Source of the DNA: Trypanosoma brucei
Taxonomy: Eukaryota
DNA length: 64,000 bases
Assembly: GCA_000002445.1 (NCBI GenBank)
Contig: CH464491.1
Coordinates: 4,512,001-4,576,000 of the forward strand
Reading direction: 5' to 3'
Part shown: one piece after another, positions 20,648 through 63,692 of the stretch
Position numbering within the stretch: the stretch's first letter is position 1
Layout: every line of letters starts with the position of its first letter
Notes under the pieces: model-generated
What the model saw: only the letters and a program-made list of their open reading frames with translations
Told to the model about the DNA's origin: nothing
The model's database searches: none
Translations under genes and position numbers: made by a program

Positions 20648-20663
20648 AGATATATTTTAACAC
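20648..20663 (+). promoter_or_regulatory. VSG 3'UTR 16-mer (AGATATATTTTAACAC, 15/16)
   Basis: The sequence agatatattttaacac lies ~80 nt after the VSG F stop. Confidence 0.65.
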
Positions 20664-20867
20664 TTTTTGATGAAAATGTGAAAATTAGTGAGAATTTTCG
20701 AAACTTGAAAATTATGAAAATTTTAGTAAAATGTGTATGACAGTGTCCCAGGTGTGTGAAGGTAAAGAAATATAAGGAATGAAGAATGAATACTATTCTC
20801 ATTGGATTATTTTGTTTATTTTTTGTGTTTTATGGATGTTTGTTAGGCTTTAATAACGATAACTACA

Positions 20868-20915
20868 AGATAGTATTGTGAGTGTGTATATACTAATATT
20901 ATGGGAACTATGGTG
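20868..20915 (+). repeat. 70-bp repeat element (plus orientation)
   Basis: gatagtattgtgagtgtgtatatactaatattatgggaac. Confidence 0.5.
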
Positions 20916-23560: not shown

Positions 23561-23655
23561 AAAAAATTGGCTGTTATGGCTGCTACTTTTATGAGTTTAG
23601 TCGAATTCTAGGATCCAAAGGATATTTGCTTAGTATAATGAAAAATAAGAAATTT

Positions 23656-24780
23656 CCCTGGTGACGCTGGCCACATCATCGTAATGTCAGTGTCTAGTAT
23701 TTCGTCCAGAAGGAATTCAATAGCCCGCATTATACACGATCCAAAAGGGTTGAGGCTGGAAACAGGTTTTCAGCCACCAGAGAAGAAGCAAGAAGCAACA
23801 TCGGCACTCTGTGGTAAATGAGGTTTTACGAATTCTTCCCTGCACGTGCAAACGTGCCTCGATTGGGATAAATAGGCTTCCACTACTACTTAGCAGAGAT
23901 GTTGAGTGTAATCCTGCTCCCCAGATACATGGAACCCAATATAACACTGTGGAGGTACCTCAGAAAAACGACTTGCCTTAGAGAAGAAGCTCCACGAGGA
24001 TATGGTAGTCTTCTGTTTATTGCGGGAGACACACTTGGCAGCAGAAGAGTACTGCATATTAAAAGCAGCGGATACCAACATATGTGGATGTCACGTTCTC
24101 TACATGGTGGTATGGTATCAATTCTAGTCAAATATGGGATGGGAGTGGAACTGGGTCCAAAGCTGGAGGGTCTGCCGGAAAGAGTCTCGGTAACACTGAT
24201 GTTTTTAGCTGATTTAATGTTAACTATAAAATCATTTTACTTCCAACGGAAGAAAAATGTCACTACCTACGCTTGAGTGTCTTGAGAGATCGACTTTACC
24301 AATATTAATAAGATCTGATACAAAAACTCATCATGATTTACGGGATCCGTTATGCTCAAATGATACTGTAAGAGAAGTTTTGTGGACTAGTGTCTACGAA
24401 AAGATATCAAAATTGCAAATGATGGCACTACGAGGAAAAATATGCCTCTCACAGAAACCAGATCATCTCATGATGTTATAACGTACAGAGACTGCGAAGT
24501 CACAAGATGGAAGGCAAGCCTCATCCCAGAGAGTGACAACTAATGGAAAACGTTTGAGATATGTATTGGCATTGGTGTAGAAGTGATCGCCATTACAAAG
24601 CCAATAAGGGTGTTGTATGCTTGGAGTATAGCAAACTAGTTGGAGTTTAGAAAAGTGTGTGGTGTAATAATGGTGAAAAAATTAAGGAAGTCTGGAAAGA
24701 ACGTGGATGCTATGAATGAGGCAGTGACAAAAGTAATTCGCACAGCAGCAAAGGAAACAATACAAAAATGTAAGGGAGTA
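23656..24780 (+). mobile_element. DIRE (degenerate ingi-related element), 5' part, internally deleted; truncated by the assembly gap
   Basis: The 5' end (ccctggtgacgctggccacatcatcgtaatgtcag) aligns to the ingi 5' end at 35866. A decayed 2A motif DVECNPAP sits at 23898-23921, where ingi has DVEENPGP. An APE block VFCLLRETHLAAEEY matches ingi AFCLLSETRMTPEEA. An RT-start block VKKLRKSGKNVDAMNEAV matches ingi IKLLPSGSAAGPDCLYNEAL. Confidence 0.6.
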
Positions 24781-24880
24781 NNNNNNNNNNNNNNNNNNNN
24801 NNNNNNNNNNNNNNNNNNNNNNNNNNNNNNNNNNNNNNNNNNNNNNNNNNNNNNNNNNNNNNNNNNNNNNNNNNNNNNNN
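24781..24880. other. Assembly gap (100 N)
   Basis: A run of n, of the conventional unknown-size gap length. Confidence 1.
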
Positions 24881-26036
24881 TATCTAGCCAAGCTGCCCAA
24901 CAAACAAGACACGCGCCCATGGGCCGCTCTTGAAGCGGCCCTTGAAAGGGAAATAGGAGGCGTCTTAACAGCACTTCCAGGTACAGCAAAAGCAGCAATC
25001 AAAGCAACACAGCGCGCAGCTCACCTGCAAGAACGCTTAGCCGAATTTCTGTCAATCTTCGCAAACGCAGCCAAATCCGGCGTGCCGCAACATTGCTGCC
25101 TCTCAACAGGTTCAAACCATCAAACAGCAGTTGAAGGTATCACAGGCCTAAAAGGCTGCGTCCACAAACCTGGAAATAGCAGCGCCGTTCCGGAAGCGGT
25201 GACGACAATCACGGCAGCAACGTACAAAGACATACCGACTCAAACAGCTGACGGGAGAGATGCGATAGCTGCGGCGTCCAACCTAAACTGCAGCATAGCA
25301 CTGGGGACAGAAGATGGATCTCTGGGAGCCGGCATACCTAAAAACGGAAACAACAGCAAGAGCCACGAGCCTTTCACTGCAGCTTATCTCAAGGTAGCCG
25401 CCAATGCAATAACAGCAGTTAACCCCAACAACAGCATCAAGCTACGCTAAGCCAAGTGAATTCATGGTAATTTAGGTAGCAGAACTCAAAAAGCAGTGAG
25501 TTTACTGCTTCAATCCAAAGCCGAACACGACGACCACACAGAAAAGTTGGTAAAAGACAAATAAAAAAGAGGAACGAAATTCGAAACAGATTTCTGGGGC
25601 AAGGTGCTAAACGAGCAGGTAACAAAGCAAACGGCAGACGGACAAAGCAACCGCATGCTAGGACAGATGAACGACATCACTGAGCTGCAACTTACTCTAA
25701 CGTATTATGAGAGCCTTAACGGCGCGGAACATAAAGATAATTAAGGAGCTGCAGGAAGAAAGCAAAGCAAATAAAGAAAGTTCAGCAACCACAAAGATTA
25801 GTGAAACAGATGAAACTTGCGCGACCAAAGGAGTAGATAATGTGAAAACCCCTGCAAGTTGGTTGACGAAGAAGGTGGAAAAAAGAAGTGCAAATTGGAT
25901 AAAGAAGCGGCAAAACAAGCAGCCCAGGCAAGAGAGAAAGATAGTAAAACCGGACCCACAAACACCACAGGAAGCAATTCTTTTGTCATCAACAAGGCCC
26001 CTCTTTTGCTTGTATTTTTGATTCTAGCATAAAACT
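24881..26036 (+). pseudogene. VSG: VSG (F'), near-identical duplicate of VSG F from its codon ~77 onward; 5' end lies in the gap
   Basis: Positions 24881.. match 19417.. almost base for base. One difference is SSKLR>SIKLR at 25436. ORF 25082..25450 equals the tail of ORF 19190..19987, and ORF 25707..26021 equals ORF 20244..20558. Confidence 0.75.
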
Positions 26037-26110
26037 TTTAAAAATTATTGGTAAAGGATTTTTTGCTAAATTTTAATAAATATATTAAATTAGTTTTTTT
26101 TGAGGGAATT

Positions 26111-26126
26111 AGATATATTTTAACAC
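26111..26126 (+). promoter_or_regulatory. VSG 3'UTR 16-mer (duplicate of 20648-20663)
   Basis: agatatattttaacac. Confidence 0.65.
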
Positions 26127-26330
26127 TTTTTGATGAAAATGTGAAAATTAGTGAGAATTTTCGAAACTTGAAAATTATGAAAATTTTAGTAAAATGTGTA
26201 TGACAGTGTCCCAGGTGTGTGAAGGTAAAGAAATATAAGGAATGAAGAATGAATACTATTCTCATTGGATTATTTTGTTTATTTTTTGTGTTTTATGGAT
26301 GTTTGTTAGGCTTTAATAACGATAACTACA

Positions 26331-26378
26331 AGATAGTATTGTGAGTGTGTATATACTAATATTATGGGAACTATGGTG
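26331..26378 (+). repeat. 70-bp repeat element (duplicate of 20868-20915)
   Basis: gatagtattgtgagtgtgtatatactaatattatgggaac. Confidence 0.5.
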
Positions 26379-27504
26379 CTGAAGACAGATGGACGGGCTA
26401 AGTGCAAGCATCTATATCAGTTACAGAGCGCAATGTAAGTAAGTAATTGAGTAACAAAGAATGGAGAAGAGAAAAGGATAAAAAATGTTAGAAAAGAAAA
26501 CAAAAAGTGTTAGAAGGATTTGATGCACTGTTTAGTAAAAGTCTATAGGACGATATCATCATACGGGGAAATGGTTAAGAACAATGAGACAAGAAGTCTA
26601 CTAATCGATATAAATAGAAATACTTCGGAATTCACAGCAGTAATAGGTACAAAAGCCGCTGTCGAAAGAACAGGTAAAAGAAGTAACTAAATGATAAGAA
26701 ACCGCGGATGGACGCGCAAAGAAGAATTTTTTTAGTACAGAAAGATTCAAATGACAATCCGCCTCACTCTCACTAAATCAATAAAAAACTGTTGAACCCA
26801 TTTAAAGAGCGAGCAATTCACAGACGTATACACACTAATACGGTATTGATAGAGCGTATCAAACACTTCACAGCGAAAAGTGCATTTGGGACTGAAAATG
26901 AACAACGTGAGACGAAAGAGACAGATATTTACATGATAAGGACAAAAATAAGTTGAAGCTGTGAGTATGGTAGAAACGCTGGCTTAATATTGTTATTTAA
27001 TAAGTACACACACAACAGAAGTTAACCTCTAATATAAGCACAAAATACAATAATAAATATAAAAATTTTTGACAGAGATTAGACTTCTATAAATTATATC
27101 TTTAAGTAGATAATTCTTTTACTTGACTGAGTGATTTTTAAGCAACAATAACTGACTGGCAAACAGCACTCATACAAAACTTTTGTACGTCCACTCAGAC
27201 ATGAAAAAATATTTCTAGCTTTATTTTATTTAGAAGTTTGTTACTTTCCACTTTCACTGGTATTATAACGCGACACATCAAATGATTCATTTAAAAATAA
27301 CACTCGTTATTATTTTTGGCAGGAAAATCTAAGTAAAAAAGCAAAAATGGGACAGAGAATTAAGGGATCTGTGTTTTATTTACAAACTTATTACTAAGTC
27401 CGGTGCTTGGCCCAAAATGTATACCCAAACCGGCATACAGACTGCAAGGACATACTTTTATTTGAGAACCACATTTTAACGGTAAGGACCAAAGAAGCTC
27501 TTTC

Positions 27505-29095
27505 ATGGCGGCAGCCAAAGGAAGGATCTTAACTCTCTTAGCGACGCTGCCGCTTTTAAATGGAGCCCTTACAGCCTTAGCAGCTGTAGCGGAAGACAGC
27601 AACCAGCCAGAACGAAGGGCTTTGTGCGCTATAATAGAGCTCGGTGGCGAAAGATCAAAGCTTCTAGACCAGGCACCAGGAGGAACTTCAGACTTGGATG
27701 AGTTGCTATCGTTAAACATGACGCTCGCGGAAGACACATGGCTGCAACACTTCAGGGACGCAACAGACCCGACTAAGCCACGAGACACAACCAAACAAGC
27801 GCTACCCCCGAATACGAATTGGGATAAGCGCTGGGCAGACTGGAAGAAAGCCGCCGACCCTCTGTTGGACAAAGGAAAGATCACGGAAAAACTAAAACAC
27901 TTTAAGCTAGACAAGTTAAACGATGAACAAAAACATGCCGTCCGGCAGAACGTAGCTAAACTGGCGGAAGAACCCTACACGGAGGCGAAGCAAGAGGAGG
28001 AGGACCATCCGACAGCCGATATCCTAACAGAAGAAGACCTGCACAAAGAACTAAACACAGCAATTTACGGAACCCAAACGGAGCCTGCTGACACTTTCGA
28101 TAATTATAAAACGTTCGGCGACACCGCGGGCGCAACCAGGGAAGCAAACTGCGGAACTAACACGCAAGCGAGCAAGGCAGAAACGGCGTTCGCCGCATTC
28201 GTCTGCGTATGTGCCAAAGACAACACACACGCCGGCGACGAAGCAAAAGCCTGTGCAGCTTCTGTAGATCTGACCAACAACTGGGATCCGGGCACCAACA
28301 ATAACCCATTGCCAGCCACGTTAGCACAATTAAGGAAGCTGTGCAATATGAAGGCTGAAACGACGCTAACAGCATCAGAGCTGCAAAGAAGGATCGCGGA
28401 AATCACAGGATTACTCCGTCACACAACACAAGCAACGCACCTCGGAACTTTCCTAACTACAGACTGCAGCGGAGCCGCAGCCAACGGGATGTGTGTCACA
28501 TACAAGGGCATACACAACAACGCAGCAGACCCCAAGAAAGCAATAACCTGGATAGCTCAACTAGATGCCACGGCGAAAAAAATACACAAACACGAACAGG
28601 CGGTCCAAACTAGGAAGAGGCTAGCTCAGCAACTAGCAGTAAAAAAGAAGCTTGCTACGGACGTAGACCACCTAACAAGAACAATAGAAACGCCGCAGCG
28701 ACGGTCCGAACTGCAACAGCAAGCGGAAGAACAAAAAACCAAAAACCAAGCAATAGCACAATCAACCTGCGACCCACAAAGAAAAGTAAAAATAAATGCG
28801 AAAATACAGGTAAATGCAAATGGAAAGGTGAGGATGAGAGCAAACGAAAGTGCGAAGTTAAAGATGGTGGAGAGCAGAACAGCTAAGGAACAGATAGAGA
28901 TGCAGGAACAACTGTAAACTGTAGAAAGTATAAGGGCTAGGAGAGTTGCAAAAACGCGCCTGGAGAAAAAAGCCATGTAAAATGCCGTCTGTGGCTGGAT
29001 TGATTTCATTGAAAGACAAGGCAAAGTAAAACCGGCATGCATGGATTCCAGTTTTCTCTCCAATCAGAAATTGGCTCTGATGGCCGCTGCTTTTG
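27505..29095 (+). pseudogene. VSG: VSG (H): intact signal peptide and ~400-aa N-domain; C-domain and GPI signal scrambled over 3 frames
   Basis: ORF 27505..28917 (470 aa) begins MAAAKGRILTLLATLPLLNGALTALAAVAEDSNQ and carries ...FAAFVCVCAKDNTHAGDEAKACAAS.... After ~28790 the real C-domain (CENTGKCKWKGEDESKRKCEVKDGGEQNS* and later ...DSSFLSNQKLALMAAAFV...) lies in other frames. Confidence 0.7.
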
Positions 29096-29166
29096 TAGAT
29101 TCGTATTATTTTTGCATTCTAAAATTTTAATTATTATTGCTCAAGTTTATGAAACTTGCTGAAATT

Positions 29167-29182
29167 TGATATATTTTAATAT
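29167..29182 (+). promoter_or_regulatory. VSG 3'UTR 16-mer variant (TGATATATTTTAATAT, 14/16)
   Basis: tgatatattttaatat, downstream of the VSG H GPI-signal remnant. Confidence 0.5.
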
Positions 29183-29269
29183 TTTTGTATATCCTTTAAA
29201 ATATTTGAGAATCTAAAATGGTTGTATGACTTTAGCCCATAGGTGGATATAACAATGGTTATAGAGCAT

Positions 29270-29700
<431 letters not shown>

Positions 29701-31425
29701 ACCCTCTATAAGATGCACTTGAAACAATGTACAAGGGTGTAATGGCAGTAAGGTGGTAATACAGTGAGGAAGAAAGTGTAATATTATTAGGTGAAACGCC
29801 GAAATACAAAGAGGGATATGATGAAGGAGATAGAATATGTACAGTTACATGCACAAAAATGATGATGAGCATCATCATACACAATGAGATTAAGGAGTGA
29901 CAGAGTGGAATGTATACATGCCATATGGAGCGGTGATGTTATCCCAAGGTGTGTGAAAGAAAACGGAAGTCAAGGAAAGAAAAAACTAAATAAAAAGACA
30001 GTAGACATGAGAGTCCAGAACTAAGAAGATAATACATGAGGATGAACCTATGATGGCCAACATTTCACACAGAAGTGGATAGATGTTGCTGCAAAAATTG
30101 TGTTGAATGGAAATTTAAGCTGATGTCAGATCCTAATGTACGGTTGTGAAGAAAATTCAATAAATGGAGAAGGAGAAAGAGAATAGGTAAGTGTCAGGTA
30201 AATTTGAAGAAATGTTTTCATCAGATATACTAGTACACAATAAAAGTTGTGGAAAACAATATAATTCTATCGGAAAGAAGAATGTTGAAACCAGTAATTC
30301 TAATCGATTACCATTGAAAAACAAAAAAGTAGAATAAAGACGCGGAAAATGATTAAATTAGCACATGTATGAATCTTCTGGAAAGGGTTGTGAAGTAGAT
30401 ATAGTTGGTATAAAAACTACACTACTTCCATGCTGGTACAGGTCCAAAGATTAACCTGCATAAAATGTTTGTTCGCTAAATATTAAGTTCAAACTGAACC
30501 CATTTAATAACTAGAATAAAGGTTTCGAAGAAGCCAAGGTAGTTGTAAAATTGACCATAATACAACTTGCACAATCAGCCTCGAAACAGTCGTTGTTCGA
30601 AGGAATCCTAGCCTGGACGAACCGCCGGGGACTATGCGCAGACGTTACATTGTAAATGAATTGGCAAGTAACAAGCCAAATTTAAGGACAAATAGACTAC
30701 AGTAGCAACCATAATATTTGAATAACCAAGTTTATATATAAGAATCAGGTTTTATAGCAGAAAAGAATTAGACTTAATCAGCAATAGAAGCAATAGATAT
30801 AGATGCTGAGTGACACACATTGCAATGGAAATTAGCAAAATTGCTATTAAACTGCGTGTTTCTAACAGAAGTCTCGACCGTGGAGGCACCCTCAACGTAG
30901 CTATCAAATTGTCAAGACTGAATCCTTGAGAAATGAAATGGGTGACCGAAAAGGGAAGGTTAAACAGAATCAGAGAAGAATTTTAAAAACTGACGATCAA
31001 AGATTAACAAAATTTTCTATCGAAAATTTCTTCTTTAGAAGAAAAGCAATGGCAGTAGCTAGTAAAGTTAGACAAAAAACATACAACATACAACGACAAC
31101 AAACGAAACTAAAATTTAAACTGACAAGAAAAAGGCAAAGATGCACAGGGCAGGTAGAGGTCAGTTTTCCCGACAATAGATTGAGTCAAATATCCAAGAT
31201 GCAGTACCCAGGAAGCGACACACTCAGCCAGCAAACAAGACCTGAAAAAGTGGCTCCACGAACATATCAGGTGCCTCCGAAAAAGCGTTGGATGTCTGCC
31301 CTACATTTTGGTTCACAGTGGAAATCTGTTTTTTTTTTACGGAAAATGCGGAGAAAACATCGACACTTGGACTAAATCCATAGTTCATTTATTAATTCAT
31401 TTACCATCCAGGTGAAGCTTAACCG

Positions 31426-32943
31426 ATGACCGGCAGAAAAGTCTCTATCACCAGCAAAAGTCTGTTGGCCGCCGTTGCAGCACTACTAACGCTAGTGTAT
31501 GCAACAAAGCCAGCATCAACAGCGGCCATAACCGATGCTGACACCGGCCCAGCACAGATAACAGACGTCTGCAAGGAAGAGTTTTATTTGTCTGAGCTGC
31601 GAAAAGAACTCGCGGCAGGAATCACCAGGCGGCGAACACAGAGACAGGGACTACTGAAGATACAGAAAAAGTACAGGCTGGCAGCGGACTTAGCAAGCAG
31701 CACAGAACAGCGTTGCCTTTACTCCGCTTTAGCTGCCAAGCTTGAGGAAAAAGCGGAGTCAGTACAACAGCAGGCCGACAAAGCCGACGACACAGCCACC
31801 ACAGCAATGGAGCTGATCGACGAACATGTAGGCAAACTCAAGTACGCACAGAAACTACTCAAAACAAAGCCAACCGTAGACGGCAGCGGCTACAGCCGAG
31901 CAAGCAGCGGGGGCAATATCCACCTAGAGTTAACACGGGAGACAATCGCCAGCGGCGGCTGCGCAGCAATTGACAGCTGGGCCAAATTCAGCAACACTCA
32001 CACGGCCATCAACACTGCGAAGTTAACTGAGATTAAAATAACACCGGACACCGAGCTCACCACAAAAATATTCAAAGACAAAATAACCATTGGCGGGTTC
32101 AGTACATGCACAGGATCCGCAGTAGCAAAAACACCGACGTTCTCGAGTGTCCTAAACACCTGCACCGTATCAAACAGTGAAACAGTAACCTATGCACGTA
32201 ACGCCCCAGACTACATATACGGAGGGACAGCACAAGCGGTCTACAAAGATCATGACCCTGACCAAGGCTGCAAAGACGCGGCAGCGGCGGCCGAGCCCGG
32301 CGCAACGGATGACATCAAACTCCGCTATGCAGTATGCGAAGCGCTCAAAATTATACAAACAGACGGGGGCAAGGTGCCACCCTTAAATGGCAAAGCACTG
32401 AAAGGCGACAAACTAGTAACAAATATACTAAGAAACTGCCTACCTGCATACCAAGCAGTAAGTAAGCCGTTGGACTCAGTCGAAGCGAAGAATTTAAACG
32501 ATTTTATAGAATCAGCATATGGTGCAGACGACGGAAAATTCAAAGAGATTTTCGATACCCCACTCGACTCACGACAGATAACCGTCAAACTGAATGACAA
32601 AAGCGAAGACAAAGCACTAACTGCACTATCTACAGCTAGCGAACGCAACGCAGCGACTAGCCATAGCGCTGGCCAGCGGAACAAAAAAGAAATTGAAACA
32701 TCAAAGAAACAACCAGCCGGTGCACCAGTTGCTTCCAAAGAATCAGAAGAAAAATGCAAGGACAAAACACAAAAAGAGTGCAAAGAGGAAGATGGGTGCG
32801 TATTCAAGGGGGGAAAGTGCGAAGCTAAAGTAACCACAACAACAGGGACAGATGGGAAAACAAACACCACAGGAAGCAATTCATTTGTCATTAAGAAGGT
32901 GCATCTTTTGCTTGCATTCTCCCTCGCATTATTAAATTTCTAA
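31426..32943 (+). CDS. VSG: VSG (J), apparently intact, 505 aa
   Basis: A single ORF with a signal peptide (MTGRKVSITSKSLLAAVAALLTLVYA) and an N-domain. Its C-domain reads ...CKDKTQKECKEEDGCVFKGGKCEAKVTTTTGTDGKTNTTGSNSFVIKKVHLLLAFSLALLNF*. Confidence 0.8.
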   Translation: MTGRKVSITSKSLLAAVAALLTLVYATKPASTAAITDADTGPAQITDVCKEEFYLSELRKELAAGITRRRTQRQGLLKIQKKYRLAADLASSTEQRCLYSALAAKLEEKAESVQQQADKADDTATTAMELIDEHVGKLKYAQKLLKTKPTVDGSGYSRASSGGNIHLELTRETIASGGCAAIDSWAKFSNTHTAINTAKLTEIKITPDTELTTKIFKDKITIGGFSTCTGSAVAKTPTFSSVLNTCTVSNSETVTYARNAPDYIYGGTAQAVYKDHDPDQGCKDAAAAAEPGATDDIKLRYAVCEALKIIQTDGGKVPPLNGKALKGDKLVTNILRNCLPAYQAVSKPLDSVEAKNLNDFIESAYGADDGKFKEIFDTPLDSRQITVKLNDKSEDKALTALSTASERNAATSHSAGQRNKKEIETSKKQPAGAPVASKESEEKCKDKTQKECKEEDGCVFKGGKCEAKVTTTTGTDGKTNTTGSNSFVIKKVHLLLAFSLALLNF

Positions 32944-33290: not shown

Positions 33291-34194
33291 TGAATTGATG
33301 AACAAAACACAAGCACTTACAGAAATGACAAGGACGAAATGAGAGTAAGTAAGTTGGTATGAGAGTGTGTGAGGGCACGAGTAATATTATTATTAAAGGG
33401 AAGCAGAAACATAGAGAGGAAAAAGGAGATCGAATGTACGCAGCTTAAGACACAGATATGATAATAGTCATTATCATACACAAGAAGGCAATGAAGGGGC
33501 ATCATGTATAAACCAGAATGCAGTGTACAGAAAAAAAAAGGACTCTCCACCTTATCTTAAGTGAAAGAAGTAGAAATAAAAGTAAAAAATGGAACGAAAA
33601 TAACAGTATGTAATGAAAGAATATGCGACAACGCAGCGGACCACAAAAGGAAATGATGCGTCATTATGAGAAGTAGTAGCTCGTTCTGACCCTATAGTAC
33701 TCAAAAATGAAGATATAATACTGCAAAAATGATAATAGAGACGGTGTTCTTTTTCTTGATGGAGGGACCCTATGTTAGAAACTAAGGTCATGTGACAATA
33801 CTGATTAATAGAATAAATAATATTTATTTGGGATAAGAAGTGGTTGAATTCCAAAAAGGAGTTGAAATGGAGGATTTTTGAAATTAACCTTTTAGTTACA
33901 TAAAAAATAATATATTTCAAACATAGACCTATATGCATGATAGGTTGTAGCTAGCTGTAGCGAAAACTAAGGCGTAGTCAGTGCCGACGAACAACAGCAA
34001 ACCGAAAATCCGAACACGACATAACGGTTTAGAGGCTGTCTGCGGCAAAGAAGCGCAGCCGATGCACAAAGACCATAGTGGTCAGCCGAGAAATGCTATA
34101 GTTAAAAAACCAACATAAGTAGCAACTTAAAATCGACCTAGCCATTTACAAACAAAGATCCCTAAACAAAGCAAAGCACACGTAAGTAAGCGCA

Positions 34195-35627
34195 ATGCGG
34201 TGGATCGGCATTTCCCTCGTCTTTGTCATAATGGCAACAGCAGATTTCGGCGGCTCAACAACGGGGGACGCAGCCCAAGACAAACTTCATACAGCATGCC
34301 AGGAGGTGGTATTCACCGCAGAAGTGGCACATACCTACGAAGAAAGAGCAGTTTAGGCGGAAAGTGCTTATCGGCAAATCGTGAAGCAGGCACTAATTTG
34401 GAACTTAGAGGCACAAACAGAAATAAAACACGAAAGAAGCGTCTTACTAGCAGCACTTTCTGCATCAGCGACGGCACTCGCCTCCGAATCAGAGAAAAAA
34501 GGAAAAGAAAAAGCCGCTAAGCTCAGACAGGCGGCGCAGGCGTTCGCACAGCGAGCGGAGGCTTTGCAAACAGCGTATAAAATGGCTGCACAACTTACGC
34601 AGCAAACAGCAACCCTTTCACAGCTCCAGCGAACACCGGCTACACGATAACGAGCGGCGCTACACAAGAAGGACAAAGTGCTTGTGACGACGATGCGAAA
34701 AAAGTCGACGGCAAGCAGCCGCAGCCAAAAGCGTTCGGGACCACCGCCCTAAAGAAACTAAAGCTGACGAAAGCCTCCGAGCTGCACACGCTGCTAAAAA
34801 AGGCATCCGTCAGCGTAACAGCAGCTGGCAACAACTGCGCCAGAGCCGATTCGGCGACGAACAGCATAACGTCATGCACCGGAAACATAGGTGCCGGTAC
34901 TGCGTTTAAACTGGCTGCGCAGAAGGAACCGCAACCACCCGAGACCAGCATCTTCGACAGCGATGACCGCCAAAAGGGTTGCGCAGAAAAGCTTGCAAGT
35001 GAAGACGACAAAAAAGACACAACAAAAGTTTTTCTGAACACGATCTGCTTGGCGGAACTACATACAACCAAGGACCTGCCCAAACTAGCCGACATCATTC
35101 CAAGCTCGCTGGCAGCAGACGACAGTGTGATAGCAGCAATCCGAAACGCCGATACAGCGTTCAGTAACATCAAAGACGTCAGCGATGGCACGAAAGACAG
35201 CGAGTTAGTAAAATATGTAACCAAGACCTACGGTCAAACCCCTGAAAAATTCACAGATGAGTTTATCACAAAGATGAACAAGCAACCTTTAAAGTATAGA
35301 GCCTCTAAAGAGATGACAACCAGTACCCTTGAGGAATTAGCAACAAAAAAAGAAGCAGGAACAGCAATCAGTTTTTATCATGCACAGCAACAAAGAAAGA
35401 GAACAGAAGAAGATTCAACTAAGGAAAAAGAAGCAACAGACAAAAAAGAAGAAAAGAAAGACGGGAATAGTAAAGCCAAAGTTGTAAATTGCACCAGTCA
35501 TGCCACTCACGATGGGTGCTCAAAGGGAAAGAATTGTAAATGAGAAAATAATGCTTGCAAAAATTCAAGTTTCCTTGTAAATTAATTTTTTCTATGATTG
35601 CTGCGGATTTTGTGGGACTTCTATTTT
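34195..35627 (+). pseudogene. VSG: VSG (I); early stop and multiple frameshifts
   Basis: The ATG at 34195 encodes MRWIGISLVFVIMATADFGG...ERAV*, a signal peptide followed by a stop. N-domain pieces are ORFs 34200..34520 and 34381..34650. The C-domain ORF 35049..35543 ends ...HDGCSKGKNCK*, and the GPI tail (IAADFVGLLF) is in another frame. Confidence 0.65.
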
Positions 35628-35874
35628 AAGAATTTTTGCTCCATTTCACAAAATTTACCATTAACAGAGAGTTACCTATATTTGGAAAAATATGATATAT
35701 TTGAAAAGCATTTAATTAAAATGCATAAACTACAGAAATTATTAAGAATTTTACGTATAACATTTTGTTATGAAAGTGGCATATTTTTTCAAAGTAATGG
35801 GCAAATAGGGTATGAAAATGAATCATATTATTAAACTGTCATAACTATGTTAACTAGTAATAGTACCCCTAGAG

Positions 35875-37023
35875 ATGCCGGCCACCTCAACGTGGTGCCA
35901 GGGTCCAGTACCCCGTATCATCTGGGGAAGCCAAGAGCCAGCAGCGTTCCCTTCATGGGGAACACTGCTGTGCTCCGGCTACGGCATCATACAGCACAGG
36001 GATCAGCAGCGTCTTGCTGGGACACCGTCTTTCATTTGTCGGTCCCTGGGCACGTGCCAGTGTGCCATCAGCAGTATCATCCGCACTAAGATGCTGCTGT
36101 CCGGTGATGTGGAAGAGAATCCCGGCCCGTCTTTGCGCGGGATGCAGTGGAACTGCGCCGGGCTATCTCAAGGAAAGAGATTAGCACTCCACAAAACCCT
36201 TGTTGATGAGCGGATCGCCTTTTGTCTGTTGAGCGAGACAAGGATGACGCCTGAAGAGGCGGCTTGCTTTAGCGTTGCTGGCTACCAACATCACGAAATA
36301 GCTCGTAACTGCAAAGGAGGTGGTGTATCAATACAAGTGAGGGAGGACCTGCCAGTCGAGACCGGTATGCCCGTTATTGGTCGCATTGAACAAGTGCATG
36401 CAACAATTCACCTTGCACGTGGAACGGCGCTGACTGTCACGTCGGCATACATCCCACCAAAACACACCTTCACGGCAACTGACCTAGATACGCTTCTGAC
36501 GACTGACGGTGCCCAGCTCATCGGTGCAGACGCTAACGCACACGCGTTGGCATGGGATCGCGCGAGCCCACCAAATACCAAGGGTGAAACCCTCACACAG
36601 TGGTGCATTGACAACCAGTTTCTGGTCTGCAACACTGATGAGTGCACCAGGTACGCGCGCCACCACGGGGAGTCCACCCCTGACGTGACACTGTCAAGGA
36701 ATTGCACAGTGTACACGTGGACATCGCTGTATTCTCCCGATAGCGATCACCATCACATATTTTTCGACGTTATCGTTGGAGACGACACAGATGCACTGAG
36801 TTGCCCGCGGCTTCGAAAGCCCATGTACGGATGGCTAAAAGCTAACTGGAGGAATTTCCGTCTCAAGGTTGACGAGCTCTGCAGGAAAATTGGTAGAAAG
36901 AAGAACGTCAACACCCTGAAACAGAAATTGAGCTCCGCCATCCGCATTGGACACCTGAGCTCGCGAAACTCGATGAAGAGATCGCTGGATGCGGACCCTC
37001 CCACCGAAGGAAAAAATTGGTAG
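35875..37023 (+). pseudogene. ingi ORF segment: 2A peptide (DVEENPGP at 36106-36129) plus APE endonuclease domain
   Basis: ...KMLLSGDVEENPGPSLRGMQWNCAGL...IAFCLLSETRMTPEE...SAYIPPKH... Confidence 0.75.
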
Positions 37024-37464
37024 CCACGCGTAAGCAAATCCTGGACCGTACCACAAAGAAGAGATGGAGCACGCTATGCTCCAGACTTGCGGTGTCGGAC
37101 CGCTGCAGTTGGCACATTGTCAAGAAGGTATATGCGCCACGACCACTAACCACACCGGCTGTACTTGTTGATAACGCGGCCATCACGGACTACCGTCAAG
37201 CTGAGAGGTTCAGTAAACTGTACTCGTCCCGCGCAAGAAGGCACCCCAACTCACACCCACCGGCACCAATAAAGACGATAGCGAGTGAGTTCAGTCCCAT
37301 CACGATGGCTGAACTACGGAGATCGATCAAACTGCTACCGAGTGGATCCGCAGCCGGACCTGATTGCTTATACAACGAGGCACTGAACATCTCGGTAAAA
37401 CAGCGCTGAATGTTGTTCTGAGGCTATTCAATGAGAGCCTACGAACGGGAGTCGTGCCGCCTGC

Positions 37465-38829
37465 ATGGAAGACTGGTGTTATCATCCCCATCCTGAAGGC
37501 CGGAAAAACGCGGAGGACCTCGATTCTTACAGGCCTGTGACACTCAGGAGCTGTCTCTGCAAAGTCATGGAGCGCATAATTGCGGCGAGGCTTAGAGACA
37601 CTGTTGAGTCCCAGCTGACGCCACAGCAATCAGGCTTTCGCCCCGGATGCTCAACGCTCGAACAACTCCTGCACATCCGCGCTGCCCTCTGCCGTCCCAC
37701 GCACCAATCTCGTACGGGTACTGTATTTGTCGACTACGAGAAGGCATTCGATACAGCAGACCACGACAAAATTGCGAGGGAAATGCACAGAATGAAGGTA
37801 TCACCCCACATTGTGAAGTGGTGCGTATCATTTCTGAGTAACCGAACTGGCAGAGTGAGATTCAAGGAGAAGCTTTCCAGAAGCAGAACATTTGAGCGAG
37901 GAGTGCCACAAGGAACTGTCCTTGGCCCAATGATATTCATTATTGTCATGAACTCGTTGAGCCAACGCCTTGCAGAAGTGCCGTTACTGCAGCACGGATT
38001 CTTTGCAGACGACCTAACGCCACTTGCGAGGCACACAGAGAGGGATGTCATCAACCACACGCTACAATGCGGCCTCAACGTGGTGTTACAGTGGTCAAAA
38101 GAGTACTTCATGTCTGTCAACGTAGCGAAAACAGAGTGCACACTCTTCGGGTGTATAGAGCGCCACCCCCTTACATTACAACTGTACGGCGAAAGAATAG
38201 GAGCCGACAGGACACCGAAGCTTCTAGGAGTAACATTCCAGTGTCTGCAGGGGATGGCAACACATGCGGCCGAAACGAGACGCAAGATGGACTTCAGACT
38301 ACTGCAGATAGCAGCCATCTCAGCTTCTACATGGGGGCCAAGACGACAAGTACTGAGAGCTTTTTATCTAGCACTCGTACAGGCACACACCATGTATGGC
38401 ATTGAGGTATGGTACTGGGACGCTTCGGAACGAAGTCGCAACCTCCTTGCAGCAGCACAACACAAAGCCAGTCGCATCATAGCTGGCATACCGCATGGGA
38501 CGCGCAAAGAGGACTCTCTGCTGGAAGCAAACCTCCTGCCACTCAAGACGGCCACTCTTGTGCGCAGAATGAAATTCATGCTGATGTGTGAGTCACGAGG
38601 CGGATGTTTGCGGCGTAGTGCTGAGGAAGTATACCACAGCAAACACCCAGTCAGAGCCCTGCATTCCCGTATCATGCGGTCCTACCCCCACCTCCGCATT
38701 GAGCCACGCGAGCACCCACTAGAGACATCGACGCTCCGCCACAGCTGCCGACCGCTATTTCACACGCAGATAAAGCCTGTGTGCGCTGATGACCCTGACG
38801 ATGTAAAAACAAAGGGTTCCAAAAAGTGA
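37465..38829 (+). pseudogene. ingi ORF segment: reverse transcriptase (FADD box)
   Basis: ...YRPVTLRSCLCKVMERIIAARL...GVPQGTVLGPMIFIIVMNSL...GFFADDLT... Confidence 0.75.
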
Positions 38830-39088
38830 ATTGCACGGCATTTTGCACGGAGGGGGATAGGAGCCACCGCGGCGAGAGCACTACGAATTGTAGACTGATG
38901 GATCCGTCTCCCTCGGTGAGAAGCCCGGAGCAGCTGCACTGCTCTATAGAAACAACACGCTGATTTGTGCACCCAAAACTGGAGCAGGGGAACTCTCATG
39001 CAGTTAAAGAGCGGAATGCGTAGCATTAGAGATAGGACTGCAACGGCTGCTGAAATGGCTTCCGGCATACAGAAGCACACCGAGCAGG

Positions 39089-40912
39089 TTGTCCATCTTC
39101 TCTGACTCGCTGTCAATGTTAACAGCACTGCAGACAGGCTTTCTAATAGTGTCGGACCCAATTCTAAGACGACTATGGAGGCTTCTGCTTCAAGTTCAGA
39201 GAAGGAAGATGCGTATCCGACTGCAATTTGTATTTGGCCATTGTGGCGTGAAACGGAATGAGGTTTGTGATGACATGGCCAAAAAGGCCGCTGATTTACC
39301 ACAGTTGCGAGACACATGGATAACGGACATCATTGCTTACGCGAAGCGAGTGCTTAGGTCGGAAGAAGTCCATGAGAACACTCATAGGTTTGGTATTACA
39401 GGCAACCACTTTCCAACAAAAAATAAGGAAGAACTGACGAGGGAAGAAGAAACGGCACTGGCACGCTTTCGGGTTGGGTCTTCAAGACACTATGGATGGA
39501 TGTTGCGAAAGATCAACCCGAGTGTGCCTCCACAGTGCCGATGGTGTAACCCGCAACATGCAGCGATAGGGCCAACAATACAAACAACCACACCTGTTGC
39601 GACACGCACTCTTCAGAGAACCTCCGAATCCACCAAATGTACGGAATGTGATGCCACATACCAATGCCGCTCGAGTGCTGTAACGCACATGGTAAACAAA
39701 CATGGCTTTGTGCGAGCTGATGCCCTCCGGAGGATCAAATACGGCGATGCAAGACCTGCAGTGGACATCCCCCCGGAGCCCCTTCCAGTGGTGGCGATCG
39801 TTCCTCTACCATCGAGCACACGAGTCCCGATGAGACCGCAGGTGCTTCATTGTACCCTCTGTGCCTACAAATTCGCAGTGCCAGGCCGACTATTACACCA
39901 CCTTAGAACAATACATGGCATAGGCAGCGGTAGTTGCCGCGTGAAAAGGGGGCGAGAAAACGAAGACTCAGTGCAAGGAGATGGTAGAGCCCCAGCAGCG
40001 CCAGCCTCTCAGGATACACGGAAGCTGCCGTTTCAATGTGACCTGTGCGAGGCGAGCTTCGGTACACGCTCTTCCCTGTCACTACACAAGAAATTCAAAC
40101 ATAAGAGCATAGTGACGGAGGACGGTACCGTGGTGGTGGTGCAAATCCCTCGTAAGCGTGCCCGTGAGGGAAACGTTGACGCCCCGGGGAAAGGCGAGGT
40201 GCAGTGTGGTGTGTGCCAAAAAGTGCTCAGTTGCAGGGACTCCCTCATCCGACACTGTAAGGCTTTCCACAAAGGTGAGGGAGTCGAGCTTAAATGCAGC
40301 AATAACACAAAATTGTGTGCCACTGATTCCCCGCATACAAACACATCCATGTTGGTTTGCCCGACATGCGGAAGGCAGTGTGCTAGCAAAACTGGCCTCA
40401 CCCTACATCAAAAGAAGATGCACGGTATGAGAGTAGAGCGCGCTGTTACCAGCCAACGCGGCAACTGCGAAGAAACGTCGCTGCACTTGATGAGCTGTCC
40501 CGGTTTGAAGGAGTTACGTGTCAGGTTTGCGGTAGAAGGTGTGTGTGTGCAGGATGTATGTTTCTTTAAAAGGCTGGCGCAATTTCTCATTGCGGTTGAA
40601 CGGAGCCGGCCGCAGGTGAAGTCTTCCCCTAATGTAACAGTCATACAACCCACTCTCCCTTCTGCAACTTCCCCCCTTATTGCCGACTGTGGAGCTAGCA
40701 GGAAAAGCACCGGACGCAGGAATAGTCCAGACACCCTCAGAGACAGAGGGGGTATGCAATCAACAAGCAAAAAAACAGAAAGAGGGGGAGAGAATAATAA
40801 ACGAATAACAAAAATCAAAACAAAAGAATTGCTAATTGACATCTTTGGGAGAGTCCAGGGTGGGGGGCTTCTCGCCCCATCTGCTGTATTCCGTTCAAAT
40901 GCGGAGCTATAA
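39089..40912 (+). pseudogene. ingi ORF segment: RNaseH-like/C-terminal domain with 5 C2H2 zinc fingers
   Basis: CTECDATYQCRSSAVTHMVNKHG, HCTLCAYKFAVPGRLLHHLRTIHG, QCDLCEASFGTRSSLSLHKKFKHK, QCGVCQKVLSCRDSLIRHCKAFHK, CPTCGRQCASKTGLTLHQKKMHG. Confidence 0.7.
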
Positions 40913-42019
40913 CAAAAATTATAGAGAGTGTGTTAGGCTTAATAAAAGAAGGAGACTCTGCCACAGTCGCCAGAACGATAGCATCTCAGGGCTCTACGGT
41001 GATGGCTGATGGCCGCGCCAGGGGGAGGGGAAACTCTCACGAAAGCAAAAATTTTTTTTTTTTAAAAATCCTGTTGTGCCTATGCATCTTCAGTAACATT
41101 ATAACGCTGAAACGTTTGCAGCACATGTGACCTCGGAAATTTTGCACCGTGATCCTGGTTAATTGTAATTCCTTTCGCATTTGTGTTGCAATTTTGGTCC
41201 TCTCTGCATTTGTGCTTTGTGTTTATTTTATCCGCCCAAAGAGCGCCGGGTCAGCCTGTATTCTCATGTGAATTATTCGTTCCTTGAATGGTCTTAACGT
41301 CTGTCCTGTCTACTAATAAATAATTAGAAAAATATTTTTACTGATTCTTTTTGCTTTATAATGCTCGACAATAAGTTTATACATACGTTACTTTAACAAA
41401 TGTTTGTTCTTATATTCCTATTGCTGTCCACGTTGATCCAGAAATAATCATAGTATTTATAGTATTTGACAACACAATATTATACTGTTGGGAACAAACA
41501 TTGGCACTTATTATTATGTTTAATATAAAAATTCTTCGATATTAACTCGGATGTGACCAATATTTTCTTTCTTATTATTCTTTTTCTCCACAGGTGGATA
41601 TTAGTAAATCCCATCATATTAAAAACCAGAATCATTACCATCTCTGAAGTTTTATATGTCCATATTTAAGTGAAATATGGTGCTAATATCCCCTTGTATT
41701 ACTTGCGTTTGTGATGCAATGCCGGTCATTCGGGTTTTTACTATGTATTTTATTCTTTTCCTTTTCGTCTACCATTTTTACCCCTTCATAACACGTGGTG
41801 TTTTTATTTTACCAGCACACTGGATTGTGCTTCACCATCATTTTCTTCGCCATCATATACTTTCGGATAATTATTCCCTGCATTTTTTGTATAAAACTGC
41901 GCAATTTCCATTTTTTGCATGTATAACTCACCTACTCCCATTGCACCCTTCCAATTGATTTAAGTGCTTCTACTTCGGACGTATGTTTAGTCATTAAGAC
42001 AACTCCTACTGCAAAATTA

Positions 42020-42100
42020 GTATATATACACTTACAATACACTTCTATCTTCGCCATTATTATTACTATCATTGCTATTATAATATCAATAAAACAATCC
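42020..42100 (-). repeat. 70-bp repeat element (minus orientation), orphan: no VSG on its downstream side
   Basis: gcaaaattagtatatatacacttacaatacacttctatcttcgccattattattactatcattgctattataat. Confidence 0.5.
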
Positions 42101-42309
42101 AAAATAAACAAAGTTAGCAAATTAAAATATCACACATTTTTTATAACTTATCACACTACTACTTTATAACCATTGGCCGCTTTCATGCTAAAATTTTTAT
42201 AATTTCAATAATCTTCCATATTGCAAATGATTGACAGACAGTGTTTAATTATATCAAATTTTAAACATTTTTATAAATTTCATAGAGCTGAGAAAATATC
42301 TTTAGAATT

Positions 42310-43840
42310 CTCAAAATGCTACAAAACTTACAAAAGCACAAGCCATCAAAGCCAATTTCTTATTGAGAAAAATAGAGGGATATTTTCAAGTTTCGCCCTC
42401 CCATTTGCAATCCGGAGATTTGCATTCTTTCTCTACTTTCCCTTTGCATTTCTCTGTTGTTGTTTTCTCTCCTTTTTCTGTTGCTCGTTCTCCCTCTACT
42501 GATTTTATTGGATTGTATTTGTTTGTCTTTTTATCGTATGTGCATGTTTTATCTTGGCACTCCTTGGCCTTGTTGTGAAACTGTTCGCATATTTTTTTGT
42601 TTGTGTAATCATCCTTTGGTGCTGCCGTTTCTGTTGGGAATGCAGTTTCTGCAACATCAGGTTCTGGTTGGCTAGTGTAGTATAGTAGTAATTTGGAATA
42701 TTGGTCGCTGCCTCCGTCTAGGTTTTTCAGTTTATTATCCTTGACGTTTATTCCCCACTCATTGTCGCTTACTATCGTTGTCTGCCGGATGTTTTTTAAG
42801 TAAGTGTTAACAAAGTCGTCGGGTGTTTTGCCCAAAATTTCCCTCAACTGATCCTTCTCACTGTTTGAAGTGGCGAAAGCTGCTGTTTTTAATGTCTTGT
42901 TGAGTTGTATTTGCGCGGTCGCTTGTATAAAGGTGACGTCGTCGAAAAGCTGATTGTAGATCGCCTTGTCGGCTGCTGTTGGTTCGTCAATGTTAATGCT
43001 GTCCAATGCTGTTTGGGCTGCCTCTGCCTCTTTGTACGTCGGTTGGTTTGTGGAGGCTTGTAGGTTGTTCATGCCCGGCACCGCTAGTGTGGGGCCGGCC
43101 GCCATGGTTATTGCGCCGCCACCATAGTAAATTGTCCCTCCGGTCACGGCGTTATTGGCTGGCATCTCTCCTTTTGTTGTGGGTGTGCCGAAGAAAGTAC
43201 AGTCTGCTTTGGTGTACGTGGCTGGGTCGTCTATACTGGATTTGGCGGTTACCGCCTTGAAATTTACGGGTGCTGCTCCTGCGTCTGCGTACCGTTGGAG
43301 CTGCTCTGGCGTTGTCTGGTCGCATCCTGGGACGTTGTCGTTTAGGCCCGTCCACGATGCAACGGAAGCTCCTGTGGCTGCTGTTATAATGCAGCCGCTG
43401 CCGCTTGAAGTTGCTCCGGAAAATTGGCTCAGCAACGACAGAAATTCCGTTGCATGCCCAGCAGCTAGACCTGCACGGACAGAAAAAGTTAGCCCTGCCG
43501 TTGCTGCGCCGTGGAAGGTTGTTGTTTTTGTTCTTTAAATATATCGACGTTGGTAGCAACTGCTGAAGCTAACTTGCCGACGCGTTGCATTTTGTTCATT
43601 TCTGCATAAATAGCCAGCTGGTTTCGTGTAATGGTCAGCTGCTTGATGAACGCTTGAGCTGCCGTCAGCTCCGAGTTGGCATATTGGTGCGATTCTTTTA
43701 GTTCTCCATCCAGCGTGCAGATTGATGTGAACTCAGAGGCCGCAACTGCATACGTTGCGTTGCGAGCCTCAGAAACCGTCAGCATTGCGCTCAAAAGTAG
43801 AAGACGTAGGAGGGCACGCTGCGCCATGTGTTTCTGCATC
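42310..43840 (-). pseudogene. VSG: VSG (K): one frameshift near the N-terminus and a nonsense codon 23 codons before the C-terminus
   Basis: ORF 43489..43935 (-) carries the signal peptide (MAQRALLRLLLLSAMLTVSEA). ORF 42386..43435 (-), 349 aa, ends ...CKSPDCKWEGET* with TGA where Cys is expected. The GPI tail (KKLALMACAFVSFVAF*) follows in frame. Confidence 0.7.
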
Positions 43841-44794
43841 CTTTGTTGTTTTACTACTTGAAAGGTGACTTCCGTTTTGACCCTTAGGTGAACACAACCC
43901 AGTCGGCTGGGTAAAACTCGCGTTTGCGAAAACACGTATAAATTAAATCAAACTTGGTTAAAGATAATCACTCCAATATTTCGTCTTTGTCATATGTTCA
44001 ACTTATGAAAAAAATTGGTTTGATAAAAGAAACCAACGATTATCAAGACCGAAAAATATTTTGACACGTTTTCACATTATGTCCTAGTTTATCTATATAT
44101 ATATCTGTCTAAAGCCTTTACCATTTTATGTTCTTGTGCGCTTCTATTGCGGTAAAACTCGTGTTGTGGGAGTGAGTCTGAAATAACGACATGACAGTGC
44201 AGTTTAATTCGTAAACATGCTCTTTCGTATTTTTCACTGTTGTCATATCTTATTGCTGTTCTATTTTGACTATTTGCTGGCAGCTGCGATATTTCTGCAC
44301 TCTTTTGCTTTGACGTTCTCTGATATTTTACATACATGTCAGGACACTGTGCATTCATACACAAATAATACGTTCCGTGAAAGCTGTAAACGTCTTACAA
44401 GCGTAGAAATACATAATTGGAGGAAGATGGTCATCGATTCTCTATACTTCACTAAGATCCTCCATTGGTTTATATACACGGTTTATTCACAGTGGTTTCC
44501 TCCGTGCTTTAGTCAGCACCGTCTGCTGTAGATATCGCTGCGAATATTTTACTTGTCGGATCTGAGTCAATCGTTAGAATCCTAATTTTCATGGACACAG
44601 CTTGTACTTTTTTTTGCTACGAAGATCTCTTGTTTATTGCTGGGTTTGGAGGTGCCAAGAATTTGTTTATTCTCTGTGTTTTTTTTTATAACAACAATAC
44701 TATCAGCTCCTAAACGTTATTTTACAAATCCTTACCACCACTTCACCATTTTAATTATCTTACTTGTTTCTATTGTTTGACTACATATAGTCTT

Positions 44795-52715: not shown

Positions 52716-53146
52716 CAGGTGCTATTACTTCTTTTGTATTCCTTAATTTGTTAAGCATTGAAAGGTATGGAGTTCTGACTGTTTCCTGATTCTGCCTATT
52801 TTTTCAAAAGTTCTGAATTTATTTGACCTCTCTGATGATTGATAACATTATTTATAGTGCTTATAGCTGATGATTTTAAACGATATATGTATTGGTTCTT
52901 CTACTGTCAACAGCTGTCTGGCGGCACTGAGACGGTGGTTCCTTTGTTTGCAGCTGCCACACTTTTTTGATTTAAATAATTCCCCCTTATTAAACGGTTT
53001 ACCACGTACTTCCAGATCCTCAAAATCTTATTCCTTCCGCCTATAGAATATATTTTAATTTTTACAAAATCACTGGTTATAAATTTCTATTTTAAAAGTT
53101 CTTTATACCAAGTAAAATTTCTTACAATCAATTCCACCCCTTCTTG

Positions 53147-53850
53147 TCATGCAATATGCTGCCCAGGAAAATGAATGAATGGCGCCTTTTCGACTTCTCC
53201 ACTATGTGGAATAGAAAAAAATCTCTCCTCGTAATCTAGCTCAATCATTCCTCTCTTCAAAACAAATCTCTGTCCAACAGCTTCTTCTGTAATCGCACTC
53301 CATATTAGCAATGGTTTGTAAATACTCTGCTCTGACCACCATTCCCCACTCCCCTTTAGTAACTCTCCAAATGCATATTCAAACCTTCTAAATGCCCAAA
53401 TTCTGGCTATCAAACCGACACCACTAAGATAAGGCTTTCCACTTGGAGGCGATATTGGTAAGTGGTGTAACTTTTTATCTTTTTTTTCTGCGTCAAACAT
53501 TGACAAACCAGTAGCATCTCTCCACATGATCTTTTACTATATACTCCTCGCTAAATTTTTCCTCATTAGCTGCACTATTCTGTATAAAATATTACACACC
53601 AGTATTATACTTCTGTTCATCAGTAACAATAACATTAGACCCATCTACAGTTATTAAAATATCCTCATCACTTGCATTCTGACTTTCTAAAAATTCCATA
53701 ACTCATCTAGGCATTTTAACATGGCTATACAAACCCCCCATTGTAATTGTAATAATTTCAACATGGCTTAGTTTAGCATTCAATATGGTCTTACACCATT
53801 GTTGAGTTGCATGAGTTTGAACTGCAACCAGAAACAATTTAGTCTTCTTA
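53147..53850 (-). pseudogene. GT31-like subtelomeric pseudogene, copy 3 of 4
   Basis: ORF 53147..53527 (-) reads ...PPSGKPYLSGVGLIARIWAFRRFEYAFGELLKGSGEWWSEQSIYKPLLIWSAITEEAVGQRF.... Upstream pieces (…VAVQTHATQQWCKTILNAKLSHVEIITITMGGLYSHV…) lie in other frames. Confidence 0.45.

Positions 53851-63628: not shown

Positions 63629-63692
<64 letters not shown>

Follow-up and report, generated by a model that had tools for sequence, protein, structure and literature searches.

We analyzed a 64-kb window (64,000 nucleotides; contig CH464491.1, positions 4,512,001 to 4,576,000) from Trypanosoma brucei and found that an ingi retrotransposon at 35867-41068 joins two truncated variant surface glycoprotein (VSG) gene cassettes that point in opposite directions. 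Each cassette, as judged by alignment, keeps a VSG-less 70-bp repeat or a stub of one. The window represents a subtelomeric VSG array from the T. brucei group. An earlier note, made from the sequence letters alone, had described a defective ingi inserted just downstream of a VSG that it called VSG I, leaving an orphan 70-bp repeat. Every feature that it placed in the region was present, exactly or within ~20 bp of its position. We found, however, that "inserted" is better replaced by a position at a rearranged junction, as the 12-bp target-site duplication (TSD) of ingi insertions is missing and the two flanks do not belong to one site. The explanation that we favor, tentatively and at slightly less than an even chance, is that the junction arose by recombination between ingi copies and not by one target-primed insertion.

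Identity and decay of the ingi element

To describe the element, we use three T. equiperdum sequences by label: L004 is CM010675.1 (2166844-2181747), L002 comes from CM010677.1, and L003 is also from T. equiperdum. Coordinates that follow a label are internal to that sequence. The features of the element are as follows, all on the plus strand.

35867-41068, +: full-length defective ingi, collinear with the T. equiperdum ingi of L004 (4513-9745); last alignable base, 41047
35867-36113, +: RIME 5' half (first 247 bp), 93.9% identical to the RIME at L002 13442-13199
35867-35943, +: Pr77, the 77- to 79-nt 5' signature of the ingi clade, placed from the aligned 5' ends
36070-36129, +: 2A-like peptide SSIIRTKMLLSGDVEENPGP (core DVEENPGP, 36106-36129), read in the frame of the ATG at 35875
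~36433-36759, +: apurinic/apyrimidinic endonuclease (APE), Pfam PF14529, E=2.9e-13
36945, +: 49-bp deletion relative to L004, a break also seen against L002 and L003; shifts frame 1 to frame 3
~37519-38238, +: reverse transcriptase (RT), Pfam PF00078, E=5.8e-42
38827-39007, +: disabling cluster of TGG>TGA at 38827, a 1-bp insertion at 38858, TGG>TAG at 38891, and TAC>TAA at 39005
~39080-39292, +: partial RNase H, Pfam PF00075, E=2.3e-5 (25.0 bits; cutoff, 25.8)
39638-39703, 39851-39916, 40037-40102, 40205-40270, and 40358-40423, +: five C2H2 fingers (CX2CX12HX4H), from a regular expression on the frame 2 translation and from Pfam zf-C2H2_4 and zf-C2H2
40817-41047, +: RIME 3' half (last 231 bp), 90.5% identical to the RIME at L002 13191-12965
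41047-41068, +: atypical tail of A5 (41047-41051), T12 (41052-41063), and A5 (41064-41068), then TCC, from comparison of 3' ends

The sequence identifies the element, with near certainty, as one full-length, non-composite, defective non-long-terminal-repeat (non-LTR) retrotransposon of the Tbingi type, because the collinear alignment, the RIME halves, the Pfam domains, the 2A peptide, and the nearest proteins all agree. Positions 35867-41047 aligned with the L004 copy at 95.2% identity (4954 of 5203 aligned positions), and the differences were the 49-bp deletion and a few indels of 1 to 3 bp. This disposes of the composite of unrelated fragments that the earlier note had named as the finding that would overturn its reading. 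The element was 93 to 95% identical to ingi copies of T. b. gambiense DAL972 and T. equiperdum (including L001 to L003), and its nearest proteins were reverse transcriptases of T. b. gambiense and T. equiperdum and a "Tbingi protein." The element is 5185 to 5202 bp long, excluding the lost 49 bp, and its layout fits the 5.2-kb family, in which a 4.7-kb core lies between the RIME halves. Aligned with the 5' ends of ingi and RIME copies in L002, L003, and L004, the sequence from 35867 onward matched from the first base; it reads CCCTAGAGATGCCGG..., the canonical CCCT... start. The earlier note had run the 5.2-kb element from ~35866 to a short A-run at ~41050, which agrees with our start and last alignable base; the true 3' boundary is ambiguous between 41051 and 41068. 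These features, and those of the flanks described below, cannot have arisen by chance.

The 2A-like peptide is residues 66 to 85 of the frame that starts at ATG 35875, and an identical peptide is found in the L003 copy. It is a predicted ribosome-skipping peptide and presumably agrees with the published 2A of T. brucei ingi. Its core was located exactly where the earlier note had read it. Active 2A sequences of ingi lie ~40 to 80 amino acids from the N terminus, directly 5' of APE, which bears out the motif as established knowledge for ingi and is a range into which the peptide of the window falls (PMC3708506).

Pfam searches, regular expressions, and translation confirmed the remaining parts of the domain series that had been reported, namely, APE, an RT with a FADD box (38002-38013), and five C2H2 fingers. 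The partial RNase H had been overlooked; PF00075 is also found in the homologous T. equiperdum open reading frame (ORF) P0132. At the C terminus, the five fingers lie between a CRWC pair (39536) and an ...EETSLH-LMS-C motif (40484). We take this pair of motifs to resemble the CX2C...HX4C knuckle typical of non-LTR ORF2 C termini, here split by the finger array. An Rfam scan of 35500-42300 (E<=1) gave zero matches and hence no sign of an HDV-like ribozyme family in the Pr77 region.

We called lesions codon by codon against the open frame of the L004 ingi. As noted earlier, the element had been reported as defective and split over at least three frames. We found that its coding path runs through frames 1, 3, 2, 1, 3, and 2, with five shifts and at least six frame segments. 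Two of the indels are 1-bp deletions just 5' of RT, at 37386 and 37504. Compared with L004, whose frame is nearly open, the window ingi has the 49-bp deletion, the indels, and three nonsense codons, and it is a long-dead copy that is no longer able to specify its protein. It has kept the APE-RT-RNase H-C2H2 content and order of a single-ORF ingi while the ORF itself is broken, and it is a pseudo-element that belongs to the family by descent and not by function. The L004 ingi itself is nearly intact and has a single frameshift (near 5590) and a single stop (8902); a regular expression found no NPGP motif in it.

Truncated cassettes and the missing target-site duplication

To place the element in the array, we read the polarity of the window from the 16-mers of VSG 3' untranslated regions (3'UTRs), the 70-bp repeats, the VSG ORFs, and AT skew, all of which were concordant. 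Polarity is minus up to ~14.7 kb, plus from ~19 to 35.7 kb, minus from 41.07 to ~59.3 kb, and plus from ~62 kb. The ingi occupies the sole convergent switch of the window, with plus-strand VSG cassettes to its left and minus-strand VSG cassettes to its right, and the divergent switches lie at 14.7-19.2 kb and 59.3-62.1 kb. The convergent strand-switch that the earlier note had placed at the element is therefore supported by the orientation of the 16-mers and 70-bp repeats and by AT skew. We recognized a 70-bp repeat as a 70- to 76-bp unit in which a TRR (TAA/TGA) tract precedes a GT-rich ...GAGTGTTGTGAGTGTGTATATAC end, ~120 to 170 bp past the preceding 16-mer. The flanks contain the following features.

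35049-35629, +: 3' part of VSG I, an A-type VSG pseudogene (Pfam PF00913, E=4.9e-6; translation)
35693-35708, +: degenerate VSG 3'UTR 16-mer TGATATATTTGAAAAG, which departs from the consensus at 3 positions (from alignment to 16-mers in 9 other cassettes)
35842-35866, +: stub of a plus-oriented 70-bp repeat (unit start and first TRR triplets, ...AACTAGTAATAGTA), aligned with 9 other spacers between a 16-mer and a 70-bp repeat
41069-42009, -: stub of a minus-strand VSG cassette, the VSG-upstream region that follows a 70-bp repeat (nhmmer homology; skews)
42010-42110, -: 70-bp repeat, a single unit, VSG-less downstream (full-length alignment with >12 other units of the window)
42241-42256, -: 16-mer of the first minus-strand VSG (16-mer search)
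42386-43935, -: first minus-strand VSG, a frameshifted pseudogene (ORFs; Pfam PF00913 in the N-terminal part and a weak PF10659 in the C-terminal part)

On the 5' side, VSG I has a premature TGA (35541-35543) and an out-of-frame glycosylphosphatidylinositol (GPI)-signal tail, SMIAADFVGLLF with its stop, at 35591-35629. We measured ~237 bp from these codons to the element, which had been put at ~240 bp. Positions 35544-35866 are a normal VSG 3' region and include the partial 16-mer that had been seen upstream of the element. The 70-bp repeats of the other cassettes of the window begin 120 to 170 bp past the 16-mer. Here, the 5' end of the ingi interrupts the start of a plus-oriented repeat, within the first third of the repeat, where ...AACTAGTAATAGTA gives way to CCCT. 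The remainder of this repeat was not found 3' of the ingi (searched, 41052-42010).

On the 3' side, we found that 41069-42009 gave weak but significant nhmmer matches in the same register and orientation to 44150-44503 (E=2e-13), 9137-9597 (E=8e-11), and 59839-60503 (E=4e-12) and inverted matches to 30014-30444 and 33429-33765. Its AT and GC skews are those of other minus-strand cassettes. The minus-oriented 70-bp repeat, noted before at 42020-42100, is real and spans 42010-42110, with the form defined above and a start 131 bp past the 16-mer at 42241-42256. The earlier note had called this repeat an orphan. The claim stands insofar as tblastn with 8 VSG proteins detected no VSG coding remnant in 41052-42385. 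The repeat is not bare, however, as ~950 bp of the minus cassette is kept and the cassette is cut ~200 to 500 bp short of the expected VSG ATG.

The 5' flank thus matches the spacer and repeat stub of a plus-strand cassette, and the 3' flank matches the VSG-upstream region of a minus-strand cassette. On these alignments, the flanks are not contiguous and are not the halves of a single site.

Tbingi and TbRIME insertions carry a constant 12-bp duplication (PMC3820030), and the earlier note had proposed looking for one. We did not find a 12-bp TSD at the window ingi under any boundary, and zero k-mers of >=6 were common to both flanks. The best match between flanking 12-mers at any offset was 7/12, a level attained by 99.5% of shuffles, and the match at the expected positions was 4/12. 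As a positive control, the RIME at L002 12965-13442 (minus strand) has a perfect 12/12 TSD, TTATTTTCCCTA, and an A12 tail. This control RIME is complete, and a 5'-truncated ingi lies 1.2 kb away from it.

One way to account for these data is an ordinary insertion into a pre-existing convergent junction, followed by erosion of the TSD by point mutation. Consistently with this, the element has its full length and a canonical 5' end, and the L004 ingi, which lies in a like context, has a TSD-like match of 9/12 at the best offset (p ~0.09) and 8/12 at the expected positions (TTTTCCAGTGCA and TTTTACTGTGTC). We consider this explanation very unlikely. The ~5% divergence from other copies predicts that ~11 of 12 TSD positions should survive, so decay cannot explain the chance-level match between the flanks. 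In addition, the 5' flank halts in the middle of a 70-bp repeat whose continuation is missing. The missing TSD counts against a simple in situ insertion and leaves the family membership of the element unaffected.

The 3' end is also atypical. The window ingi ends in ...CACGAAAGC and then the A5-T12-A5-TCC series. The L004 ingi and the L002 RIME have canonical 3' ends, ...GGCACGAAGAAAATT(T)C(T) and then A9 to A12, a terminus that the window ingi lacks. One T. equiperdum ingi, in L002, ends with a similar A3-T10-A3. We considered the T12 as the poly(A) of a second RIME or ingi, inverted and tail to tail with the first, and rejected this because the local alignment of 41064-41200 with reverse-complemented 3' ends scored at the level of shuffles.

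Such a terminus would fit a single abnormal retrotransposition, either a target-primed insertion with a multi-kilobase deletion of the target or an ingi cDNA captured during double-strand break repair, for example, at a fragile 70-bp repeat. According to this model, a convergent junction already existed, and the event would have deleted its tail-to-tail VSGs without producing a TSD. The missing TSD agrees with it, as do a 3' terminus with short A-runs only in place of GAAGAAAATTTC plus poly(A), a 5' junction within a 70-bp repeat, and two adjoining cassettes that lack precisely their VSG-proximal parts. The 70-bp repeat is widely held to be prone to recombination and breakage. In contrast, 5' truncation is frequent among the break-capture and deletion-associated insertions of L1, a different element from ingi, while the window element is full length and starts at a precise canonical 5' end. 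The A3-T10-A3 of the unrelated L002 copy also suggests that the tail is a subfamily trait and not the scar of an event. We regard a single abnormal event as unlikely, though it keeps an appreciable share of the probability.

Recombination between ingi copies as a possible origin of the junction

Recombination is the cause that we infer from the identities of the two flanks and the missing TSD. The window ingi may have undergone ectopic homologous recombination or gene conversion with an ingi copy elsewhere. The 5.2-kb element would then have acted as a block of homology linking two array blocks of opposite polarity, and the outcome would be a convergent switch with a gene-less 70-bp repeat stranded on each side. 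We favor recombination because it accounts for swapped flanks around a precise, full-length element and because it is documented for this family, as ingi and RIME copies have served as recombination substrates giving indels and rearrangements (PMC2854126). The earlier note had left open whether the orphan repeat resulted from the insertion or from a rearrangement. With the TSD absent and the flanks non-contiguous, a single insertion fits poorly, and rearrangement is the better reading. If recombination took place, one reciprocal junction is expected to run from an ingi 3' end into TAGTAATAGTAC and what is left of the plus-oriented 70-bp repeat. The other would have T12, TTTTTTTTTTTT, or TCCTGTTGTGCC 5' of an ingi, by the missing 200 to 500 bp and the VSG of the minus cassette.

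We found a similar arrangement in L004, which belongs to an independent chromosome-scale T. equiperdum assembly. There, the ingi (4513-9745) lies within the order plus-strand VSG, plus-oriented 70-bp repeat, upstream stub, ingi, upstream stub, minus-oriented 70-bp repeat, and minus-strand VSG, and the upstream stubs on both sides are VSG-less. Because an independent assembly repeats the architecture, convergent junctions borne by ingi are probably real and recurrent.

Several observations weigh against recombination. Neither a partner ingi nor a reciprocal junction was found within the 64-kb window, which holds a single Pr77 match by a pattern copied from the window ingi itself and, hence, not independent. 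Sliding identity against 4 to 5 other copies, a small sample, gave no clear switch of nearest relative along the element, so a chimeric body was not detected in that comparison. The A5-T12-A5 tail and the absent canonical terminus would fit an abnormal insertion, too. A 100-N gap and a suspicious 93% duplication in the window leave room for a mis-join through a repeat. Finally, if the TSD-like 9/12 match of the L004 ingi is real, an ingi can insert into a pre-existing convergent junction.

We also considered a local inversion between two ingi copies with its other end at 59-62 kb. This was unsupported, as blastn and tblastn found no ingi at 14.7-19.2 kb or 59.3-62.1 kb.

The possibility of a mis-join corresponds to an assembly artefact in which a collapsed 5.2-kb repeat linked the 5' junction of one ingi to the 3' junction of a different copy. 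Neither the chimeric flanks nor the missing TSD would then be real, and the strand switch might not be either. The ingi is a high-copy-number repeat; T. brucei has ~470 target sites of the ingi clade (PMC12975129). In the window, a 100-N gap (24781-24880) lies between 4-kb copies that are 93% identical, a region for which an independent T. equiperdum OVI contig gives a different join. Look-ups by exact protein found no independent contig across either ingi junction. These look-ups returned no match for the nearest intact VSG (505 amino acids), the TREU927 homologue of that VSG, three ingi ORFs, or a minus-strand VSG fragment (337 amino acids). In contrast, the element is uninterrupted and has many private lesions along its length, unlike a consensus-like collapse, its similarity profile has no abrupt change, and the like architecture of L004 comes from an independent assembly. 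In our judgment, an artefact is unlikely, slightly less probable than the single abnormal event.

Known systems and other features of the window

We compared the window ingi with described systems. It is like Tbingi/RIME (5.2 kb) in its length, the RIME halves at its ends, the 77- to 79-nt 5' signature, the single-ORF 2A-APE-RT-RNase H-C2H2 layout, and its 93 to 95% identity. It differs in its destroyed ORF, the absent 12-bp TSD, and an A5-T12-A5 in place of GAAGAAAATTTC plus poly(A). L1Tc of T. cruzi, also of the ingi clade, has the same domain order and an N-terminal 2A-like peptide just 5' of APE (PMC3708506), and it bears the Pr77 hallmark at its 5' end (PMC1874656). L1Tc belongs to another species and subclade, and relatives beyond the T. 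brucei group are only ~35 to 55% identical in RT. A further difference from L1Tc is that Rfam detected no HDV-like ribozyme family in the window copy.

An ingi also lies 3' of the 70-bp repeats in BES2 of Lister 427 (VSG 427-9/VO2) (PMC2567434). As in the window, that ingi is directly beside 70-bp repeats within a VSG cassette. The BES2 copy occupies a telomeric expression site, where it has the repeats on one side and an intact VSG on the other, whereas the window ingi is in a silent array, where the repeat itself is cut and no VSG follows. Retroposon copies have likewise acted as recombination substrates in the ingi/RIME rearrangements between T. b. brucei 927 and T. b. gambiense DAL972 (PMC2854126). 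Those cases come from a comparison of two genomes and from chromosome cores, while ours is read from a missing TSD and non-contiguous flanks in one assembly.

The ingi family, its 2A peptide, its domain order, and its occurrence beside 70-bp repeats or in VSG regions are already known. As a single case, the window adds one more dead ingi to a T. brucei-group subtelomere and is of limited weight. With its TSD absent and its flanks non-contiguous, the ingi marks a point of rearrangement or of assembly risk in the array. The two VSG-less 70-bp repeats around it would be potential entry points for recombination that lead nowhere. Both of the full-length copies examined (the window copy and that at ~2.17 Mb of CM010675.1) lie in the order plus-oriented 70-bp repeat, VSG-less upstream stub, ingi, VSG-less upstream stub, and minus-oriented 70-bp repeat. 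That ingi copies are recurrent joints of convergent switches in silent VSG arrays is a doubtful generalization at present. If it did hold, recombination between ingi copies would be a main route of inversion of array blocks or of exchange between subtelomeres; alternatively, ingi copies might be preferentially retained at convergent junctions. Under either of these, ingi would be a structural organizer of the VSG archive and not a passive passenger.

Elsewhere in the window, the VSG at 31426-32943, which neighbors the VSG I cassette, is intact and 96% identical to T. b. gambiense LiTat 1.5. Two further intact VSGs (470 and 477 amino acids) are identical to T. equiperdum OVI proteins. Contigs of T. 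equiperdum OVI matched the window at 99.7 to 100%, and neither extends as far as the ingi.

We found a second, much older ingi-clade element, DIRE-like, at 23656-24780 on the plus strand, where it is ended by the N gap. A Pr77-like 77-nt signature starts at 23656 (score, 25; shuffle maximum, 16), a decayed 2A motif, LLLSRDVECNPAP, lies in the ORF at 23811-23981, and tblastn gave an APE-like match at 24067-24708 (24% identity; E=7e-15). The 5' junction of this element is directly before the 16-mer position of a VSG 3'UTR.

The 100-N assembly gap at 24781-24880 separates two ~4-kb copies of a VSG with its flanks, 19418-23458 and 24881-28910. The OVI contig CZPT02001161.1 is 100% identical to 24881-29431; further upstream in that contig, a segment like 17329-19417 replaces 23459-24780. 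The apparent tandem duplication around the gap may be a scaffold or haplotype join.

A ~1-kb non-coding repeat with 76 to 80% identity occurs at 17312-18298, 60635-61530 (inverted), 53102-53882, and 1489-2108, that is, in both divergent switch regions and twice within minus arrays. The OVI contig CZPT02001055.1 breaks at the 53.1-kb copy of this repeat. The 70-bp repeat regions of two plus-strand cassettes also contain long simple tracts of the TRR type, at 29385-29638 and 63572-63802. These tracts match themselves at 6-bp offsets and are far longer than the single-unit repeats of other cassettes.

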